DNA of 63,998 nt, counting the filler, from Stramenopiles sp. TOSAG23-3 (lineage: Eukaryota): assembly GCA_900128585.1 (NCBI GenBank). It is 4 parts of 4 records of this genome, joined end to end, with 100 filler letters (N's around TTAATTAATTAA, not from the genome) between each part and the next. Parts side by side here need not be neighbours in the genome. Positions count along the whole stretch, not along the records: positions 33,137 to 49,570 come from LT642487.1; 3 more parts are not named here. One strand, given 5' to 3'. A program made the translations under genes and the position numbers. Positions 12,752-36,554 of this stretch are shown piece after piece. How positions within the stretch are numbered: the stretch's first letter is position 1; each line of letters begins with the position of its first letter. The notes beneath the pieces were generated by a model, which did no database searches, was not told the DNA's origin, and saw only the letters and a program-made list of their open reading frames with translations.

Positions 12752-15700
12752 TCATGAAAACTGTGATTTCTTCTTTTTTTCGGCTCCGGCCAAGGCAAAC
12801 CTTTTCTTCCGCTTCTCCTTTTCGGTGCCTTCGAAGATTCTGGCGGTGATTTCTGCCTCCTTCCGTTTCCTTGCATTTCTCGCTTCCTCCGTCAGCTTTC
12901 GCTTCTTGGTTTTCTCGTTTCGTACGGTACGAACCTGTTGCATCATGGTGTACAGTTTCCGCTCTTTCGGGTTCATGACGACGGCCCTGGCGTTTTCGTA
13001 CGTCTCTTTATTTCTATTGCTACGCTTCTTGTTCAATTTCGGTTTCGATTTGAACGGCAGCGCCTTCTGCAGCTTGGCGGGGATACGAAGAGGGTTGAAC
13101 TTGCGAGCCTCGCGTTCGATGGGCTTGTACAGAGAATCCCTGTTCAATGGGGCTGTCTGCTTCAGGTCATGCCTCAATTTCCCGATGGTGCGCAGGCCTT
13201 GCCACTGCTGACCCTCCGGCATCAGTCTCGAGAACACGGGGTAGTAGAACTCCTTCAAGTCCACTTGGGTCCATGTTCGCAAGAATATTATATCGCTCAT
13301 GAGAATCTTGTCCTCAAAGGTGGCGCGAAAGGTCCCCGTGCCCCCCCTCGTTGCTTTCTTCACCATCCCGCGAATTCCGCTGACAGTCTTAATGTTTGCT
13401 CCGACAAATTTCGCAACTTCCAGCTCACTGCTGAACATCCCCCGAATGAAGGCGGTGTTCTTGTGGATCTTGTGGGGAGTGCCCGTCAGCTTCAACTTCT
13501 TGACGATTTTGAATGAGTGGTCGAGCTCCAATACCGTCCCCGTCGCAGCGACCCGAAACCCTTTTTCCTCCGTTCCCAAGCTCTGAAATGCAAGAAAGCC
13601 AGTGTTTGGCGGCATGTTTGGGGCGTAGAAATTGGACAAGCAGTGCATGTGCTCGGGGGTGTACTTGAGCATTCGGTGCCGACCGTTGATGTCCTCCGTT
13701 GCGTACACGGGAATGGACTGAAACCGGCGCCACCCCACCGAGTAAATAAGTGGATCATGCGACTTAAGCAAGCGCTTGTACCAGCGGTGCTTCTTTACTC
13801 GTACCCTCATGAAGCCCATCGATATTTCTTGCGGCAGCAGCCCACCAATCAGGACGGGCGCCTTGGGCGTGAAGTGGAGAATAAACTCCGCCGGGATCCC
13901 TTCGAGCTCCAGGCGCACGTACCTCCCGGCAGGTATCCCTGTGTGGCGAACGTCCGACTCCTTTTTAAACTCCGTCAGGTTCAGCTTGTCCTGTGCGTTC
14001 TTCAGTGCACGCTCTTCCGCCCTCTGGGGGTCGTCGTCGTCCGAGTCGAATTCCTCGTTGTTCTTTCTCATATGGGGCTTTACCTTTCGTCCCTGGTCAG
14101 TGGGGTCTGTTACTTCGATGTCTGCGTCTGTCAGGTCGCCGCCCGGCGGGGAATCTCCGTCGGCCTTCGAACCTTTGACCCCTACGACTGCGCCATCCCG
14201 GGAGAACACTTCCCCGGTTTCCAAGTCCTCAAAACCGTCGTCACCCCCGCCTTCCTCCCCTTCCCCCTCGGCGCCCTTCGCCTCGTTCCAGTTTCCAGTG
14301 ACGAACCGGTCGCGTATGGCCTCTTTGATATCGACGGAATCCCAATCTTTTATTCGTTGCTTGGCAACCATAAACTTGGAAGAGTCCCTCGCATACTGCG
14401 CCGCTTCGCTCTTCTCCTCGTCGTCCTTGTCGGAGTCGTTTTCCTCGGCCTGGGGGGTGTCGCCGGCTGAGTCACTCTTTCTAATGGTAAAGAAGTCGTC
14501 GCCGTCGCTACTATCACCACCATCGCTACTGTCCGATTCGTCGTCGTTGCCACTGCCGTACACTAGCTCCATCAAGTCCGCCGAGACATTCTTTCGTTCC
14601 TCGTAGTTCTTTGCGGCACGCTCGGCGAGCCCCACTTTCCACCTTGCATCGGATTCGACGACTGCAGGACCATCCTCTCCACTGTTGCTCGAGTCGCTGC
14701 TTCCATCGCTTTCATCGCTGCTGCTTCCACTCCCGTTGCTGCTACTGTCGCTCCCACTGCTGCTGCCCCCATCGTTCTGGCGCGCCTGCGCCGCCGAAGC
14801 GGAGGGAACGTCAAACCGATCGCCTTCTCCCTCCTGCTGCCCCGTGCCTTGGTCAAAGTTGTCCACGTCGTCAGCAGTGAGGGGTTTGCTCCCTGCAAAC
14901 AGGGACATCGTCGCATCTTCCAGCCTCTGCATCCCAATGCTTTCATCCTTGTCCACGTCCTGTAGTTTCCGCATCATGACGACCCCCTCGGCCTGCTCGT
15001 CCGTCTTCTTCGGGTCTACTCGAATGTACATGGCGTCCTTGTCGAACATCACGTTCCCCACGTCGGACATCGGGGCGTACAGGAGAGTCTCTTTCGCATT
15101 AAGTTTCCGGCGCATCACCTTAACGTTCGTGTCCCCAATCCCAGTTGCCCCGGTCGAGTCGTTGGCGGCCGCCTCCTCCGCAGCTTTCCTCGCCTCCTCC
15201 ATCGCCTGGTACTGCGGGGAAGGACACGGGTCTTCCAGGGCAGTGATCCCTTTGATGTAAAAGTCTCCGGCACCTGCAATGTGGACTTTCGAGCCTTCTT
15301 TCAGGTTGGTCCCCCGCGCGTAACCATACAGCAACACGTTCCGGTCGCATCGCTCGTCCAGGTGAACTTGTTGCGGCGGCGTGATGTCCTCGTACCTATC
15401 CGCCAGCACGTACGGGTGGGAATTGCGCCATATCAGTGGCCGGAACTTCATGCGAGAGATGTACAGGGACAGGTTGTGAACTTCCGCTTTGGGGTACTTT
15501 CCATTTATGACGCCAGACATGTGGAACAGCTTTGCGCCGTCGTAAATATCTGTCCAGAAGCGCTTCTTTAGCCGCTTCTTCGTCTTCGCCAGCTTCTTTC
15601 CGTCCTTAAAGCCGTCCAAATGCGTCACAAGACCGAGCACCTTTGGGAAACCGTGCACCTGAAGGATGTTCAAAAACTCGAACGTTTCCATCTGAAAACC

Positions 15701-16168
15701 TACGCTCCCGTTCACCATCAACAGAACAAGGTCAGCAATTTTTCCGATATCAAGCATGGAGTTCAGGTCGTTGCTGCACTCGAAAAATGTGACCCGCCGG
15801 GCCTTTCCCGTCACGACGGTTATGGGTCCCTGTATCTCGCCTATATTGTGCTTTGTGAACTTCTTCACGAACGATTTGAGAAGGGTGGACTTTCCGCACC
15901 CGGTTGGCCCAACAACGGCGACAATGATTGGCGGCGGATCAAACAGTGGGGTCTTTGACACTTGCTTGACATATTCTTTCTTGTGCTCCCTGTCCAAATT
16001 TCTCTGAACCTGCCGCGCAGCTTTTACCCTCGACTTTACCGTGAAAGCTTTTGCATTCTGGCCTTTCTCCTTCACGCCACGCTTCTTCTGGTCGCGCTCC
16101 TTCTTTCTCGCTGCTTTCGGGCCAGACTTTGACTTTCGGTGGATCAAGTTCGACTGTAGTTCCGACAT
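12752..16168 (-). CDS. BMS1: Ribosome biogenesis GTPase BMS1
   Basis: [60 protein letters not shown] and SGIRG.VKK. Uninterrupted ORF. Confidence 0.97.
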
Positions 16169-16417
16169 CCTTTCCTGCACCAAGAGAGATATACAAGCAC
16201 CCTAATGACAACAACAACCGAAACGTTTGAAACTATATATAAATTTCTTTTACTGTTTGTTTTCTTCTTTCATTCAATTAACATATATTACCATTATTAT
16301 TTTCTTACCGTTCATCGTTCATGACCAACCATGACTTTCCCCAATTCTTTATTATTTTATATAATAAAAAGACAACGTCGTACTACGACGGTGGAATACC
16401 ATCATCTTTATTATTTT

Positions 16418-29196: not shown

Positions 29197-32100
29197 TCAG
29201 TTTGAAGAAGAGGACTTGCCCGATTTTCTAAGGTCGGTTTCTAGACCCGCGGTGGCGTTCAAGACACCCCCAACAAAATTCATTTGGACCTGCTTTAGTT
29301 TGACAATTTCGCCTTTTGCATCATGTAATTCTTTCATTAGTCTGGAACCAACGTTTTTGCTTGCATCCAGCTGCTTGTCTTTCTCGGTCAGTAGTTTGTA
29401 GACCTCTTGGACTGCAGCGGACTTTTCCGATTCATGTCGTGCCTTGTCGTCCATTTCATCGAGCTGTCGACGCGTCGATTTCATGAGTTCTTGACTTCGA
29501 TGAAGGAGCCGCCCCATAGACTCTATTTTTTCTTCTTTCTCTAACAAACCCTTTCTTAAAATCTTGCACTCCAACTCTAGTGTACTTGTAGAGCGCAAGT
29601 TATTGTTCAGCCTGCCCGTCACATTGGTCACTTCTCTTTCAAGGCCATCGCACTTCTTGGTAAGCCCGGAGACGACATGCGTGCGTTCCGTACGCATTGC
29701 AGAACACTCCCCGCTAAGTGATTGCAGGGATGCCTTCAGGCTTTTTGCTGCGCTCATGATACTCAGTTTTTCTTGCGTTGCTTGTGCAACGACCGCTTTC
29801 ATTTCGGACAATTCCCTGTTGATCAATTCAGCACCAACCCTATGATCCTCTAGCACAGCCCGCTTTTCGTTCAGCACGCGACGAGATTGCACTGCCAAAG
29901 CAGTCTGGACACTTGCATGTGTTTTCCATGCATTGAACCTTTTGCGCGAAACTCGATCGAAATGACGAGGTAAAATCCCACAAATTGTAGATATGGCCTG
30001 GTTCTTTGCCGCCCTTTCGGCATCTGCAACGCGCATACCAAGCATTTGATTACTGTCCTCGTACCGTTGCCTTTCTCTAGTTGCCAGCGAATTGTTTTCT
30101 TCCCGGACGCGGATAAGCTCTTCATGATGGCGGCGCTTCAGGTCGTCCAGTGCACTAAGAGCTTCGTCGTATTTGTTCTGCAAAAATTCTGCGACAGTTT
30201 TTTCTTTTGCCAGGTGCTTGACGAGAAGAGCAGTTTCATCTTTGCAAGATTGCAAGCTTTCTAACGCCTCCCGTTTTTCTGATTCGATTGCATGCAACCT
30301 ATCGCCCATCTGCTCGGATTTCTGCTTGTGTGCTTCAGACTCTCTGCTCACTTCAGATATGCGCTTCGTGCACGCTTCCATGTCAGTTTTTGCTGTAGAT
30401 ACAGCGTTTTTCATCTTTGCGTTATTTTCGTTTGTCGACTTCAATTCTGCTTCAAGATTTGTAATAATCTCAAGATGTTTCTCCCCCTGACGAATATATT
30501 TCTCTCTCTCCGCAGCAATTTTCGTCCCCAAGTTTTGCAGATCTTGTGACATCTTTCGTTCCTTCAATTCAAACTTAGAAGAAAGTTCTAAATTTCGGTT
30601 GCGCTGCAACGCGGCTTCCTCCACGGTTTCTCGTATTTGAGTCCTCAACTTAATAACTTCCTCTTCGTGATTGGCACCTGCCTTTGTGAACGCGTCCTCG
30701 CTTGCCTGCTTGTTTTCTTCCAGCCTACGTGCCAATTCATGGTATTCTTCTCTTTTTTTCCGAAGTTCTTCGGCACTGTCCCCCAGTTGTTTCCTTTCCC
30801 GGTCCAAATCTTTCTGAAGGTAATTCCGTTCAGCTTGAAGTTGGGCCAACTTTTGACGGACTGCCGCAAGCGTTTCGTCGCTTGAAGCTTTTAATTGTTC
30901 GCACGAAGAAACTTTGGTTGCCATGTTCACGAGCTCCAATTTAGAAGCTGCAAGGCGCCTTTCAAGAGCGCCAATTGTCAAAGAATGTTGCTGCACATTG
31001 CGTTTTTCATTGTTCAAGGCTTCTTTTATCTGTGTTTCGGTCTCGCGACAAAGTTGCTGGGCTGATTTAATGCTCTCGTTAGCTTCGTTTTGAACGGCAG
31101 CGAGCTTGATGTCGAACGCAGCTTTCAAATTGACCGTTTCCTGAGCATGCTCAGACTGTACTGAGAGCATTTTGTATTCAGCTTGGGAACGAAGCTCAGT
31201 TAAAGACTGATCCAGATCCCTTAGCTTTGCAGTTGCCAGCGAAAGTTGGATGTTAGATGCTTCTTTCATTGCTGCCAGTTGTTTTTCATATTCAAACCCC
31301 TTTTCTGCCATTCTAGCTTTAAACTCTGCCTCCATGGTAACAACTTTGCTCATAGATTTCGACAATTGTGACTCTGATTCAACCTTCAGTTTTAGATTGC
31401 TCTCATTCAGAGCTCTGATTTGATCTTCTTTTGCACTTACAGTTGCTTTAAGGATAATGTTTGATTCCTGCAACTGCTTTACTTCGGAAGTTAAACTTTC
31501 AATCATATGCATTTGGTTAGATTCTTTGACTTCATGCGACCTTACAGCATGAACTAAATCCTCATTCTTGGCAGAAACAGTCTCATATTTTGATTTGAAG
31601 TTCTGCAAAGATGCTTCATCAGATGCATTCTGAGACTTCAAAATGTCCCTTTCGTATTTCAAACTTGAAATGTTTTCCGATAGCCGCAGCTGCTTTTCAT
31701 TCGCAACTTCTTTCAAATGTTGAATTTCAGCTTTGTGATGGGATTGGTGCTTCTGAAGGTTTTGGAGACCTAGCGCCGCTTCTTGTTTAATTTTTAACTT
31801 TAATTTTTTTAACACTTCTGTGTGTGATTCAGAAAGTTCTACGAAGGCTTGTTTCTTAACTGCTTTCCCCCAAATTCGAAATGCATTCAGCTGGTTGATT
31901 TTGGTGGCCCGAAACAAAATAGGGGCTAGTGTGTTTCTCTGTAATTTTTTGTGTGTGGACCTGCTGGCGCTCCACTGAGACCATTTTACGAATATTTTCG
32001 CTCTAAAGGAAGTCGATTTTCTTTGCGACAACAAGAGCCCAGCACGCAATTTCGTATTACTCAGTGCTTGGGACATGAGATTCAAACGTTTCTGTTGTTC

Positions 32101-33036
32101 TTGTTGATTTAATAAAACATCATCGCGTGTAAGCTGCAAACTTGTGGCATGTTTCAAACTTTGCGCTTGCCTTACCCATTGACAAAACCCCAGACGCTTG
32201 TGCACATTCGTTAAGCGCACCAGAATCTTTTGAAGGAATCGTGTCTGCGAATGTGCCTTGCGGATGGCTTCAGTTGTAAACCAGCGCCACAGAGAAAAGA
32301 AGCGGGATTTTGAACGCCGCCGAATTGCATTGGACAATATTGCAGCTGTCTGTACCCTTTTGCTTCTTAGCTTTTGGCAGCTTGTGGCAATTTGTTCCTC
32401 AATTCGGTTCAATAACAAAACATTGCTGTTTCTTAGATGTTGGACGTGGCAGGCATTTGCAGTCATATACCATTTGTGGTAGTGCATACGTAGAAATTTT
32501 CTAGATTGGCGGAGAATGATAATCTTTAGTGCCCTTAATTTCACTTGTCTGTCATGTTGCTGCTGTTTTGCAATGTGACGCCAGGATCGGAAGACACGAC
32601 CACGAACGTTCCGGAAACGGTTCCGACCGATTAGTGTACCGAGGTACTCCTTTGTCTCTTGGTGCAACAAATTCCGGGATGCCAACTGTGCATTACATGC
32701 TTCCTTTAGTGCTGCCGCTTTTTCAATATGTACTCTGAGCAACTCTTCAATTTCTGATTTGTGAGCCTTTTCCAATTTAGTTTGCCTTATCGACATTTTT
32801 TCCCTCGCAATTTTAGATTCTCGTTCTGCACTATCTTTGATAGCTTTAGCTTGGGATGAAAATTTCAAAAAAATGTCTTTCTGTTGGAAATAATTGGTAA
32901 CGATGACCCACTTTCTGAACCCAAATTGCAGTTTCAATTTGATATGGCGTAGTATTACACTGGATAGTACCTTAAGTTGCATTTGCGTTTTGCTATGGTT
33001 CGTGTTTGCACTGCTACGCCATCGCGAAAATAAATG
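29197..33036 (-). CDS. Large coiled-coil protein with Sfi1-like F..W repeats, 5'-truncated at gap
   Basis: The frame is open to the gap (HLFSRWR...). Repeats GFRKW, VFRSW, FFSLW, GFCQW, IFVKW, AFRIW and RFNAW, plus long heptad regions. Confidence 0.8.
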   Translation of the reverse strand, partial: HLFSRWRSSANTNHSKTQMQLKVLSSVILRHIKLKLQFGFRKWVIVTNYFQQKDIFLKFSSQAKAIKDSAERESKIAREKMSIRQTKLEKAHKSEIEELLRVHIEKAAALKEACNAQLASRNLLHQETKEYLGTLIGRNRFRNVRGRVFRSWRHIAKQQQHDRQVKLRALKIIILRQSRKFLRMHYHKWYMTANACHVQHLRNSNVLLLNRIEEQIATSCQKLRSKRVQTAAILSNAIRRRSKSRFFSLWRWFTTEAIRKAHSQTRFLQKILVRLTNVHKRLGFCQWVRQAQSLKHATSLQLTRDDVLLNQQEQQKRLNLMSQALSNTKLRAGLLLSQRKSTSFRAKIFVKWSQWSASRSTHKKLQRNTLAPILFRATKINQLNAFRIWGKAVKKQAFVELSESHTEVLKKLKLKIKQEAALGLQNLQKHQSHHKAEIQHLKEVANEKQLRLSENISSLKYERDILKSQNASDEASLQNFKSKYETVSAKNEDLVHAVRSHEVKESNQMHMIESLTSEVKQLQESNIILKATVSAKEDQIRALNESNLKLKVESESQLSKSMSKVVTMEAEFKARMAEKGFEYEKQLAAMKEASNIQLSLATAKLRDLDQSLTELRSQAEYKMLSVQSEHAQETVNLKAAFDIKLAAVQNEANESIKSAQQLCRETETQIKEALNNEKRNVQQHSLTIGALERRLAASKLELVNMATKVSSCEQLKASSDETLAAVRQKLAQLQAERNYLQKDLDRERKQLGDSAEELRKKREEYHELARRLEENKQASEDAFTKAGANHEEEVIKLRTQIRETVEEAALQRNRNLELSSKFELKERKMSQDLQNLGTKIAAEREKYIRQGEKHLEIITNLEAELKSTNENNAKMKNAVSTAKTDMEACTKRISEVSRESEAHKQKSEQMGDRLHAIESEKREALESLQSCKDETALLVKHLAKEKTVAEFLQNKYDEALSALDDLKRRHHEELIRVREENNSLATRERQRYEDSNQMLGMRVADAERAAKNQAISTICGILPRHFDRVSRKRFNAWKTHASVQTALAVQSRRVLNEKRAVLEDHRVGAELINRELSEMKAVVAQATQEKLSIMSAAKSLKASLQSLSGECSAMRTERTHVVSGLTKKCDGLEREVTNVTGRLNNNLRSTSTLELECKILRKGLLEKEEKIESMGRLLHRSQELMKSTRRQLDEMDDKARHESEKSAAVQEVYKLLTEKDKQLDASKNVGSRLMKELHDAKGEIVKLKQVQMNFVGGVLNATAGLETDLRKSGKSSSSN

Positions 33037-33136
33037 NNNNNNNNNNNNNNNNNNNNNNNNNNNNNNNNNNNNNNNNNNNNTTAATTAATTAANNNNNNNN
33101 NNNNNNNNNNNNNNNNNNNNNNNNNNNNNNNNNNNN
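33037..33136. other. Artificial contig linker
   Basis: 44 N + TTAATTAATTAA + 44 N. Confidence 0.98.
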
Positions 33137-33404
33137 AGATATTGTTCTTGAACTGACACCTTCTTTTTTCTTTAATTTTAATTACTATAAAATAACAGCC
33201 AATTTTTCTTGTTTTAATATCATAACAGCCAATTTTTCGTTTTTAAAACATGTTTTAAATTCAAAAAGGTACACCCCATATAGAATTTATTCGAATTAAG
33301 AACATTTTGTACAAAAAATTTCAAACCATTTTTATCCTTCTAATGATCAATGAAGACATACTCACCTCTACAGAACACACACTGAAAAAATAAATTTACC
33401 AATT

Positions 33405-34673
33405 TCACGACAGAACCTTGTCAACACTGCCTTGGCTGTTGTCGTACTTGTCATACAACTCACCAAAAAGATCATAATCTATCCCACAGCTCTCTTTTCG
33501 CTTCTGCAAATCCTGCCGCCGCAGGTAAATACTACGAAACATGAGGCCTCCAATAATCAAAAAGAACGAGAGAGGAAACCAAATTTTTGACTGATGATCA
33601 ACAGCAGCACGCATTTCATCAGTTTTTATCACTTTCATCACCAAAAATGTTTCGCAGGCCCCGGCAAAGAGGTTAAAGAAACACCCCAACACCATTTTGT
33701 CCAGCGTTGTGAGGTAGGGAAGCTTTGGCATATTCTCACTGGCAATATAAAGGAACGTCGTGGCCGCCAAAAACAAACCTAAACTGATCTCCATTCTGTC
33801 CATGAATTCATCCATGAAAAAAACCATCCAGCTCAAAATTGAAAGCATAGACAGAATCAGCATAATTTTCCAAATGTAAAACCAGAAGTGCCTGTTGATG
33901 TGGATATCGAATACAATCGCAGTTTCCTGTCCATACAAATGAAACCTATTGTTATGCGGGGGAGGTGGCAAGCGGTAGACATGTGTGAGACTATGTTCAA
34001 TCCCAAACTCGGTAACCTGCTTGTCCAGAAACGCTGGAGCAACATCACTCGTTTTCTTCCCTCTCAGGTAGTTGAGTTTAACAATATCGTCCCCAGTATC
34101 TAGTTCGCAAATTAAAATGATTTTGATGGTACCACTCTCAAACGGAAAGTTGTGAAATTCTGACTCATGGGCAACAGTTCCTTCGAACTCAATAATTTGC
34201 CGTACCAAACCATTCGCTGGATAAAACCAAGGTTTATGGGCAGTCTTGGTCAGCGAATCAGCATTCAAAATATCTATGCTAGGAGTCCAAAGTCTGTCAC
34301 AGTCAACCTTTTTGTTTATCAATCTCCGGTTCACCCATTCGAGCACAAGAATAAACCTTAGATCTGCGGAAGAGCGCAACACGTCGAGGCCTCTTATCTT
34401 TTTCATCGTCAGGTGGGCGGAAACATGTGCTCTTCTGTCCAGAACAGAAAAGGGAGGCCTGGTGGAAACAGTACCCGAGTCTGCAGCTAGGAGTTCAACA
34501 TGGTCCGGATGAGTGTGAAGCCTGTAAAGCGTACTCGTCCTTCTAACAATATTTTTCGCTTTACGCAGAGTCTTTCTCTCCTTCTTTACTGCACCCCATT
34601 CCCTCACTTCCTCCGCCGACGAGACTTCTGCAGCCGAACCTTCAGAGACTGGCACTACTTTATTTGTGGCCAT
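33405..34673 (-). CDS. Cys-less (Pro-loop) pentameric ligand-gated ion channel subunit
   Basis: LWTPSIDILNA, FHNFPFE, R..WFYIWK before M1, M2 DRMEISLGLFLA, MPKLPYLTTLDK. Four TMs with a short M3-M4 loop. Confidence 0.92.
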   Translation of the reverse strand: MATNKVVPVSEGSAAEVSSAEEVREWGAVKKERKTLRKAKNIVRRTSTLYRLHTHPDHVELLAADSGTVSTRPPFSVLDRRAHVSAHLTMKKIRGLDVLRSSADLRFILVLEWVNRRLINKKVDCDRLWTPSIDILNADSLTKTAHKPWFYPANGLVRQIIEFEGTVAHESEFHNFPFESGTIKIILICELDTGDDIVKLNYLRGKKTSDVAPAFLDKQVTEFGIEHSLTHVYRLPPPPHNNRFHLYGQETAIVFDIHINRHFWFYIWKIMLILSMLSILSWMVFFMDEFMDRMEISLGLFLAATTFLYIASENMPKLPYLTTLDKMVLGCFFNLFAGACETFLVMKVIKTDEMRAAVDHQSKIWFPLSFFLIIGGLMFRSIYLRRQDLQKRKESCGIDYDLFGELYDKYDNSQGSVDKVLS

Positions 34674-35786
34674 CTGTTTCTGTGGCAACAGAATGCAAAC
34701 AATTTAATGGGCCCAACTGTGCTCCTCTATTCACCAACATGAAGTTTCCGTTTAAATCACCGCCAACTTGATAATTGCTTATATGATAGAATCCTATTCT
34801 ATTGTTTTTACATAATTTAGATATAATATAAGGGAATCGTTATTTTATATATAAAATATAATAAAAATAATAATATAATAGTGTCTTATAATGATGATGT
34901 ATGATGTAGTAGTATTACGAGGATCCTCACACGATAATAATATTGGAATGAATAATAATAAAGGGGAGTCGTTCTAAAGTTAAGCTAGCTTTGACTCTCC
35001 TACGGTAGGGTACCGGTAGCTCTATATATTTTTTATTTTTTCCTTCTTCTATTTTTGGAAAATTAGTTATTTTTTTTTCTTTCCCCCCGCCGCGCCGCCT
35101 CCGTTCGGTATAGAATGACTATTATAATTACATCGTACGGTACATTAAAATACGGGTTCGAGTAGGGGTAAATAGTAGGGTTGTGCCGCGGGGATCGGGT
35201 TACCCTCTCAATTCTCTTATCCATCGATTGTCATTGTTGTGAAAAGAACAAAAACACCAAAAAAAAAAAATAATAATAAAAAATCCAATCATCTATTTTC
35301 GATATTTTCATTTTCTAATATAATGCTGTGTCTATATAAAATATGTTTCAGTCCAACATCATCGTCGTTTGTTTGGATTTTTTTTTTTTTTGCAATTATT
35401 TATTATTCGATAATAAAAAAAAAGAGAAAAAATTAAATCTATCGTGTGTTCATGTTAAAATATATTAAATTTTTTTAGATTTCGTCATCATTCTTCTTCT
35501 TCTATCTACTACTACTTTTAGTTGTGTGTAAATAGTGTATTTGTAGTAGATAGATGTAAAAATAATTATTTAATTTGTTGTTGGCAACCAACACCGACGG
35601 CCGACGATCCATTTTTATTATTTATTAAGAAGAAATTTGCCGCCTGTGATATTACTAAGTACAATGCGAATGAAATTATTTCTATGCTTTGCAAAAGACA
35701 GGCAGAAATGTTTCGTATAACGTTTATTAATTCTTTCTGCAAAAACTTATTAATTTCATTGACGTTTGTTGGCTGGAACTATAAAA

Positions 35787-36554
35787 ATGGCAGCAGCGGC
35801 AGTATCAAAAGGAGTGTGCGCGGTAGTTGGGTGCGGACCAGGAATGGGAGGTAGTGTAGCGCTTAAATTCGCAAGGGAAGGCTTCGCTATTGCGGCGTTG
35901 AATCGTACTGCAAAGTCCTTTGAGCCTACGCGTTTAGAACTTTCAAAATTAGGTGCGAAATTTGCTTTTTATGAAACGGATGCTACAGTAGAGGCGAGCG
36001 TGAAAGAATCGTTTGAAAGAGTGAGGAAAGAATTGGGTCTTGTGAATGTCCTTGTGTACAACTGTGGGGGTGGCGGGTTCGGCCAGACGGTCCTTGAGAT
36101 TAACCCTGCAGAGTTCACAAAGTCGTTTGAGATTAGCTGCGTTGGCGCTCTATTGTGCACCCAAGCTGTACTTCCAGGAATGCTTGAGCACGAAGGAAAC
36201 GGTCCACACCGTGTTAAGAAGAAGGGAACAATTATCTATTCTTCGGCAACCTCTGCATTCAGAGGCGGGGCAAAGACCGCCCAGTTTTCCTGTGGAAAGC
36301 ACGCTCTTCGTGCCCTTTCTCAGTCCGTAGCGAAGGAATACGGGAAACAAGGAGTGCATGCGTGCCATGTCAGGCTTGATTGTATCCTGGACGTTCCTGC
36401 ATATCGTGCGAAGTATCCGGAAATGTATGAAGCAGATAATCTTGCTTCGACGGATGACATCGCTGAAAGTTACTTTGCGATTCACATGCAATCCCCACTT
36501 GGTTGGAGCAACGAAATAGACATCCGTCCATTCAAGGAAGGGTGGTCATGTTAA
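35787..36554 (+). CDS. Short-chain dehydrogenase/reductase
   Basis: VVGCGPGMG, VLVYN, GTIIYSSATS and FSCGKHALRALSQSVAKE (catalytic Y replaced by F). Confidence 0.92.
   Translation: MAAAAVSKGVCAVVGCGPGMGGSVALKFAREGFAIAALNRTAKSFEPTRLELSKLGAKFAFYETDATVEASVKESFERVRKELGLVNVLVYNCGGGGFGQTVLEINPAEFTKSFEISCVGALLCTQAVLPGMLEHEGNGPHRVKKKGTIIYSSATSAFRGGAKTAQFSCGKHALRALSQSVAKEYGKQGVHACHVRLDCILDVPAYRAKYPEMYEADNLASTDDIAESYFAIHMQSPLGWSNEIDIRPFKEGWSC

Follow-up and report, generated by a model that had tools for sequence, protein, structure and literature searches.

A leaderless Pro-loop pentameric channel subunit in a stramenopile genome, with a ligand-binding domain that may face the cytosol

Within a stretch of 63,998 nucleotides from Stramenopiles sp. 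TOSAG23-3 (GCA_900128585.1; "the window" denotes this whole stretch of DNA, as analysed here), we have identified a gene for a subunit of a ligand-gated ion channel of the pentameric type (pLGIC). The original prediction had located it correctly at positions 33405-34673. It is a complete single-exon open reading frame (ORF) on the minus strand that runs from an ATG at 34673 to a stop codon at 33405-33407, encodes 422 amino acids and matches PF02932, ELIC and GLIC. The protein, designated P0001, combines a ligand-binding domain (LBD) with four transmembrane (TM) helices, M1 to M4, and our main concern here is its orientation in the membrane. Its segments are as follows, from the N- to the C-terminus, with charges counted as Lys plus Arg (K+R) and Asp plus Glu (D+E) and with per-residue confidence (pLDDT) taken from an AlphaFold2 (AF2) model.

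34524-34673, minus strand: residues 1-50, N-terminal extension, hydrophilic and predicted to be disordered (K+R 11, D+E 6), with an acidic-Trp motif (EEVREWG) and a basic motif (RRTSTL); pLDDT below 50 at residues 1-31, 33-38 and 41-49.
34425-34523, minus strand: residues 51-83, ordered pre-beta1 segment of short helices and a strand, packed on the LBD (pLDDT 72-97 in 10-residue blocks).
33888-34424, minus strand: residues 84-262, beta-sandwich LBD with conserved W113, W129-x-P131, N137, G155, G165 and R261 (alignment, AF2, Foldseek).
34137-34148, minus strand: Pro-loop F176-P177-F178-E179 between beta6 and beta7, without flanking Cys.
33813-33887, minus strand: M1, residues 263-287 (hydropathy; predicted helix 263-286), a putative N-in signal anchor.
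33798-33812, minus strand: M1-M2 loop DEFMD, residues 288-292, acidic and ELIC-like, which would face the lumen or exterior.
33729-33797, minus strand: M2 pore helix, residues 293-315 (ELIC alignment; predicted helix 290-314).
33711-33728, minus strand: M2-M3 loop PKLPYL, residues 316-321, conserved coupling loop on the LBD side.
33630-33710, minus strand: M3, residues 322-348 (hydropathy, AF2).
33588-33629, minus strand: M3-M4 loop, residues 349-362, short and of prokaryote-like length (K+R 2, D+E 3).
33525-33587, minus strand: M4, residues 363-383 (hydropathy, AF2), with the predicted helix extending to residue 395.
33495-33536, minus strand: membrane-adjoining basic stretch RSIYLRRQDLQKRK, residues 380-393.
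33465-33485, minus strand: post-M4 motif G-I-D-Y-D-L-F, residues 397-403, with family consensus G-[IV]-[DE]-x-x-L-[LF] (family alignment; pLDDT 95 in the block 391-400).
33408-33524, minus strand: whole post-M4 tail, 39 residues (384-422), on the same side of the membrane as the LBD (K+R 7, D+E 8).

P0001 is a Cys-loop-less (Pro-loop), ELIC/GLIC-like pLGIC subunit. It matches the Pfam family PF02932 (Neur_chan_memb; E 1.9e-7) with 32 bits, above the cut-off of 28.1, and phmmer aligns it in the PDB with ELIC (2vl0, E 5.1e-18) and GLIC (E about 3e-15) from residue 73 or 126 to residue 382. These alignments cover each of the four TM helices as well as the LBD, where residues 73-262 pair with those of GLIC and ELIC. 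PF02931, the Pfam model for the LBD, matches relatives but gave no match to P0001 at E up to 1. The AF2 model, based on a 40-row family alignment, has a pLDDT of 85.9 and a predicted TM-score (pTM) of 0.79, and Foldseek matches it to GLIC over the whole subunit (E 4e-20, TMt 0.80-0.86), to ELIC, and to chains of the GABA-A and glycine receptors (TMt 0.71-0.80). Helices are modelled at residues 263-286, 290-314, 323-347 and 352-395, while TM-like hydropathy windows occur only at 262-291, 294-312, 327-349 and 364-384. The hallmarks of the family are present as well: W113, the loop-A motif W129-x-P131, the F-P-F-E Pro-loop, R261 before M1, R0' (R293) and L9'. The 40-row family alignment shows no variation at W129, P131, F176 and P177, and at least 90% of its rows keep F178, D179 (which is E in P0001), R261 and R293. 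P0001 lacks the pair of cysteines, 13 residues apart, that would flank F176-E179 in a Cys-loop receptor, and is thus a "Cys-less" or Pro-loop receptor. The original prediction used the former term, which holds in this sense, though five cysteines (125, 189, 331, 340, 396) are present; those at 125 and 189 lie in the LBD and neither is conserved. Homologues with 45-48% identity to P0001 are conserved over the full length. The closest Atlas clusters are 100% Eukaryota, with Bacillariophyta as the commonest taxon, and the microbial eukaryote that P0001 comes from is probably a diatom or else some other stramenopile.

The ELIC alignment assigns the M2 positions as D-1', R0', E2', G6', L9', Y16' and E20', and the ELIC-like M2 with D-1', R0', E2' and L9' that had been proposed is thereby confirmed. 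With acidic residues at -1', 2' and 20' and a gate at L9', the pore is probably cation-selective. By homology, P0001 would be expected to assemble as a pentamer. A three-copy complex prediction for residues 75-405, with the alignment unused and controls not run, gave a median score of 0.29 against a mark of 0.32, which weighs on self-assembly in neither direction.

In canonical pLGICs, the LBD is exported by means of a signal peptide and the C-terminus is short and located outside. Judged by a hydropathy heuristic and by charge counts, P0001 has neither a cleavable leader nor M1-M2 and M3-M4 loops enriched in K/R, the features by which such a topology would be recognised. Its N-terminus is hydrophilic, without signal peptide or additional TM segment, as described in the original prediction: the maximal hydropathy (KD19) in the first 70 residues is 0.2, and the protein contains four TM segments only. 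The basic stretch RSIYLRRQDLQKRK is likewise found directly after M4, where it opens the 39-residue tail; the 29 further residues are mostly acidic. Two other observations were accurate but have no bearing on orientation. P0001 contains no N-x-S/T sequon at all, which had been taken as a sign of a cytosolic location. This absence is not significant, since 21.5% of 20,000 shuffles of residues 1-262 also have none (mean 1.41 sequons), and the LBDs of homologues carry 0-5 sequons each; the argument is therefore rejected. The acidic M1-M2 loop (DEFMD) had been read as a mark of inversion, yet a similar stretch is aligned in ELIC (LESFSER) and is found in leader-bearing homologues, so this loop is uninformative on orientation and was rejected as well.

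The evidence that carries a cytosolic LBD comes from the family as a whole. A HMMER scan of 1.84 billion representatives returned 2221 matches at E up to 0.001 (17 at E up to 1e-30). Our sample of 153 proteins comprises the best 150 of these 2221 matches and three proteins from earlier searches. Aligned were the 118 proteins of 290-700 amino acids, and after removal of 27 rows (fragments, non-Met starts, fewer than 15 residues before the LBD) 91 full-length rows were left. A leader was called when the 9-residue hydropathy (KD9) before the LBD reached at least 2.0, a crude cut-off and not SignalP, which divides the rows into 47 leaderless and 44 leader-bearing, bacterial-like proteins. The post-M4 tail has a median length of 36 residues in the leaderless proteins and of about 0 in the leader-bearing ones, which end at M4. 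Mean K+R over the first 18 residues of the tail is 3.98 in leaderless versus 0.32 in leader-bearing proteins, and in the M3-M4 loop 2.09 versus 4.95. Summed per side of the membrane, the mean K+R on the LBD side and the other side are 7.64 and 3.15 in the leaderless set, and 4.16 and 5.61 in the leader-bearing set. The excess lies on the LBD side in 45 of the 47 leaderless rows (one tie, one opposite), and on the other side in 31 of the 44 leader-bearing rows (eight ties, five with more on the LBD side). Mann-Whitney comparisons of the two sets give p values of 1e-12 to 1e-15, with rows treated as independent though the leaderless ones are essentially one grouping. The differences in tail and M3-M4 loop do not depend on the N-terminus.

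A FastTree phylogeny of the core columns places the leader-bearing rows in one clade with a support of 100, and its three apparent exceptions look like mislabels of the threshold. Counted by clade, the K+R excess is on the LBD side in 46 of the 47 rows outside the leader-bearing clade versus 4 of the 44 inside. The deep lineages outside this clade all keep the reversed bias (16/16, 6/6, 10/11, 7/7 and 7/7), also across branches of more than one substitution per site. As judged from sequence, the leaderless proteins form a large eukaryotic clade of deep divergence, from which the signal peptide has been lost and whose orientation signals are reversed with respect to its bacterial relatives. The N-terminal extensions in the family vary from 16 to 205 residues, some with SAM-like domains. 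A basophilic kinase-type motif, [RK][RK]x[ST], occurs in these extensions in 14 of the 47 rows versus 9.4 expected from shuffles, an enrichment too weak to be retained.

Several relatives show how the family has been elaborated. P0150 carries a SAM_2 domain directly before its LBD (23.2 bits against a cut-off of 20.5), without leader or TM segment in between. P0091 has a SAM-like match at the same place that stays below the cut-off (17.8 bits), and P0176, from the same SAM lineage, has no SAM match. In P0047 (2451 residues) and P0063 (2473 residues), five tandem pLGIC subunits are encoded in one ORF each, preceded by about 860 hydrophilic and leaderless residues (maximal KD19 of 1.13 and 1.29); both proteins begin with MPQP. 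The TM domains of P0047 are located at residues ~853-990, 1201-1342, 1546-1690, 1887-2017 and 2260-2394. With approximate boundaries, its five M3-M4 loops together contain 9 K+R in 78 residues and its five post-M4 stretches 17 in 90. The N-terminal ~650 residues of P0047 and P0063 match no Pfam domain at E up to 5. These two proteins, taken from unverified gene models, appear to be natural single-chain pentamers, for which our literature search found no earlier report. A search for longer fused forms yielded only an amphioxus protein with extracellular-type domains, and nothing further came from a near search that used the family profile. Both the SAM fusion and the single-chain forms would agree with a cytosolic LBD, and neither is decisive.

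We propose the following mechanism. Without a leader, the N-terminal region of about 260 residues would stay in the cytosol, and M1, inserting N-in, would be the signal anchor. The cytosolic side would consequently hold the disordered extension of residues 1-50, the M2-M3 coupling loop, the LBD and the long basic C-terminal tail, and the far side, either lumen or exterior, would receive only the five-residue M1-M2 loop and the 14-residue M3-M4 loop. A cytosolic signal, be it a small molecule, an ion or pH, would gate the channel, and upon opening cations would cross the plasma membrane or an endomembrane. The N-terminal extension and the tail could then serve as cytosolic regulatory or sorting handles, replacing the M3-M4 intracellular domain of animal receptors. 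In the AF2 model, M4 runs to residue 395 and the motif at 397-403 is placed with confidence; the tail may therefore dock near the interface between LBD and TM domain. As to the ligand, two features of the closest clade provide hints only: loop B has a T-G-D that is conserved, and loop C begins with basic residues.

At the far end of the tail (33408-33440, minus strand), P0001 shares the motif S-V-D-K-V-L with P0003 and P0004, homologues of only 30% identity; a short linear motif seems to be conserved here.

The annotated start codon appears to be genuine. The ATG has an A at -3 and a G at +4, and an in-frame TAA lies 10 codons upstream. The region on its 5' side is organized as follows.

34674-35786, no strand assigned: AT-rich spacer of 1.1 kb between the channel gene and a head-to-head short-chain dehydrogenase gene, containing the in-frame TAA and a CAG-ending pyrimidine-rich run.
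35787-36554, plus strand: short-chain dehydrogenase gene.

All five full-length members of the 90% cluster of P0001 have 422 residues and begin with MATNK. In P0031, P0038 and P0048, the first residue is likewise this aligned Met, which opens the sequence M-x-T-K-V-x-P; an acidic-W-G motif comes next, and P0002 has that motif too; the homologues that share this aligned start represent separate 50%-identity clusters. Two genes from that of P0001, a papain-family protease is encoded whose single ORF includes a classical leader, which serves as a positive control (n=1). Taken together, this indirect evidence favours the annotated start. Twenty sequencing runs match part of 33200-35800, 12 of which are recorded as RNA. 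The best share of this region among the RNA-recorded runs (firm or guessed) is 0.42, a lead only, from which nothing follows on expression, habitat or the ends of transcripts. Neither a protein-based scan nor a degenerate N-terminal DNA pattern found anything in metagenome contigs.

On the minus strand at 34674-34700, a pyrimidine-rich run ending in CAG, followed by AAACAG, abuts the ATG and resembles a 3' splice site; an intron in the 5' untranslated region (UTR) is thus possible. Two relatives from the same 90% cluster, P0043 and P0203, are identical from a common point onwards and differ wholly in their first 20-27 residues, a difference for which read-through of the UTR, a chimeric contig or an alternative first exon could account.

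Alternatively, P0001 may adopt the canonical topology, with its LBD in the lumen or outside, either since a signal-peptide exon was missed or since the N-terminal 260 residues are exported unconventionally with M1 as a reverse signal anchor. We consider this rather unlikely, while giving it serious weight: it is established knowledge, and to our knowledge without exception, that characterised pLGICs have an exported LBD. A number of points weigh against a cytosolic LBD. The CAG-ending pyrimidine run immediately before the ATG is a possible 3' splice site, and three ATG-led hydrophobic peptides are encoded 530-640 nt upstream (35203-35311, minus strand). The original prediction that a hydrophobic upstream exon is absent therefore stands only in part, in that all three lie in T-rich, low-complexity DNA. 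P0001 may possess an upstream signal-peptide exon or a 5'-UTR intron. The alternative N-terminus of P0203 is weakly hydrophobic (KD9 2.08) and represents one possible counter-example to the rule that leaders are absent. Moreover, most homologues are ORF calls from metagenomes and transcriptomes of unknown provenance, in which a first exon could be systematically missed. The hydropathy cut-off mislabels at least P0176 and P0159. The p values given above do not count independent events, because the leaderless rows are essentially one split, and the lack of a tail in leader-bearing proteins by itself accounts for some of the charge difference. In P0001 itself the bias is small, with 7 membrane-near K+R on the LBD side versus 5 on the other, and its M3-M4 region, as counted in the family charge tally, holds 4 K/R. 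Finally, SAM domains are not strictly cytosolic, as STIM1 has one in the lumen of the endoplasmic reticulum. Against a missed exon stand the Met-1 motif that recurs in homologues from separate 50%-identity clusters, the uniform length of the five full-length cluster members, the poly-T nature of the upstream peptides (one of which has no GT donor), and an intron-poor window in which the nearby secretory protease keeps its leader in the same ORF. A missing exon would also leave the K/R-poor M3-M4 loops and basic tails unexplained (46 of 47 rows). Unconventional export is not expected either: N-tail translocation is known only for short tails, and here more than 250 residues would have to cross without a leader.

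The protein could also reside in an organellar membrane, such as the mitochondrial inner membrane or the plastid envelope or thylakoid, where the N-terminal extension would act as targeting peptide and the LBD would project into the matrix or stroma, still on the positive-inside side. The bacterial type of the channel and the hydrophilic extension with its basic stretch at residues 29-46 would suit such a location, and the charge bias places the LBD merely on a cytoplasm-equivalent side. Yet the first 25 residues contain five Glu and relatives carry acidic-Trp motifs, unlike mitochondrial presequences. Import into the plastids of diatoms and other secondary-plastid algae requires a signal peptide first, and P0001 has none. 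The extensions in the family vary from 16 to 205 residues, in part with SAM-like domains. Judged on the composition of the N-terminus, mitochondrial or plastid targeting is unlikely, and we regard this explanation as improbable. It is very improbable indeed that the gene is a relic, either decaying or not coding for a channel, in which the topogenic features drift. The failure of PF02931 to match P0001 could be read in this way, but the 422-residue ORF is intact, W113, W129, P131, the Pro-loop, R261, R293 and L9' are conserved, the AF2 model is confident, and homologues at 45-48% identity are conserved over their full length.

A cation channel with a cytosol-facing LBD remains the best reading of P0001, which we judge to be somewhat more probable than its negation. 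The inference from the positive-inside rule made in the original prediction is partly supported, and is the best-supported one, through the family-level pattern, whereas the sequons and the M1-M2 loop, on which it also leaned, carry no weight. The broader claim, that an ancient eukaryotic pLGIC clade inserts upside-down and is gated from the inside with the LBD as cytosolic sensor, and that SAM-fused and single-chain (~2450 residues) forms evolved within it, we hold to be evenly balanced between true and false.

In the vicinity of the channel gene, a minus-strand ORF of 1261 codons without interruption (29197-32982) is rich in K, E, Q and L, which gives it a coiled-coil-like character; it matches no Pfam family at E up to 0.001. 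Between this ORF and the 3' end of the channel gene lies a scaffold gap (33037-33136) composed of two runs of 44 N around the linker TTAATTAATTAA, and for this reason the two may not be truly adjacent. Summed from the ORF listing, about 70% of the window is covered by long uninterrupted ORFs, a gene-dense, intron-poor layout of eukaryote type. Long ORFs on opposite strands overlap each other at 12752-16183 and 14001-16000 (1143 residues on the minus strand; 317 and 276 residues on the plus strand). This stretch is locally GC-rich (0.564) with a strong AT skew (-0.233), and probably represents coding sequence that is repetitive or biased in composition.

The entire structural and physiological picture of pLGICs takes for granted an LBD that is outside or periplasmic. 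If the proposed orientation is true, protists, including ecologically dominant marine algae with poorly understood signalling, would possess a new class of inside-gated channels. It would equally imply that a complex oligomeric channel can flip in evolution by loss of the leader and re-weighting of flanking charges, and the hunt for ligands of orphan protist pLGICs would turn to cytosolic metabolites, ions and pH. If it is wrong, the family represents an unusually large case either of leaderless N-domain export or of missed first exons.

The family itself has already been catalogued. According to two surveys, one of them on diatoms (PMC11085791), Cys-less eukaryotic pLGICs occur in protists including diatoms and other stramenopiles (PMC4795631; PMC11085791), and P0001, with its eukaryotic origin and Cys-loop-less core, fits the group as delineated in the other (Jaiteh, Taly and Henin, 2016, PMC4795631). 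In that study, N- and C-terminal segments outside the pLGIC core were trimmed, and helices were numbered as if the cytoplasmic and extracellular sides were the usual ones. The term "signal peptide" does not occur in the main text of either PMC4795631 or PMC11085791, and the available portions of both contain no discussion that we could find of orientation, tails, SAM fusions or single-chain pentamers. Full-text literature searches, whose coverage excludes subscription journals, returned no statement that signal peptides are missing, that the topology is inverted, that LBDs are cytosolic or that concatemers occur naturally. An inverted orientation, if true, would be new for a well-known channel class.

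The best matches of P0001 in both sequence and structure are ELIC of Erwinia (Dickeya) chrysanthemi and GLIC of Gloeobacter violaceus. It shares with them the absence of the Cys-loop, the short M3-M4 loop, the F-P-F-[DE] Pro-loop, the P-[KR]-L-P-Y M2-M3 loop, and R0' with an acidic -1' residue in M2. In contrast to ELIC and GLIC, P0001 is leaderless and has an 83-residue extension before the LBD, a 39-residue tail that is basic near the membrane, and E at position 2'. The bacterial-type relatives in our data set, for their part, possess a hydrophobic leader, stop directly behind M4 and carry a K/R-rich M3-M4 loop. With the animal Cys-loop receptors (nicotinic acetylcholine, GABA-A, glycine and 5-HT3 receptors), P0001 has the subunit fold, the four-helix TM domain and L9' in common. 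Those receptors possess a signal peptide and a disulfide in the Cys-loop, their extracellular domains are glycosylated, the cytosolic domain between M3 and M4 is large, and the C-terminus, which is extracellular, is very short. The clade of P0001 differs from them in that disordered, motif-bearing segments of a regulatory appearance are found at both termini, on the LBD side. If the LBD is cytosolic, a functional analogy would exist with the inositol trisphosphate (IP3) and ryanodine receptors and with the cyclic nucleotide-gated (CNG) and hyperpolarization-activated cyclic nucleotide-gated (HCN) channels, which are tetrameric, have folds unrelated to pLGICs and for which no homology is claimed: in each case a cytosolic signal would open a cation pore.

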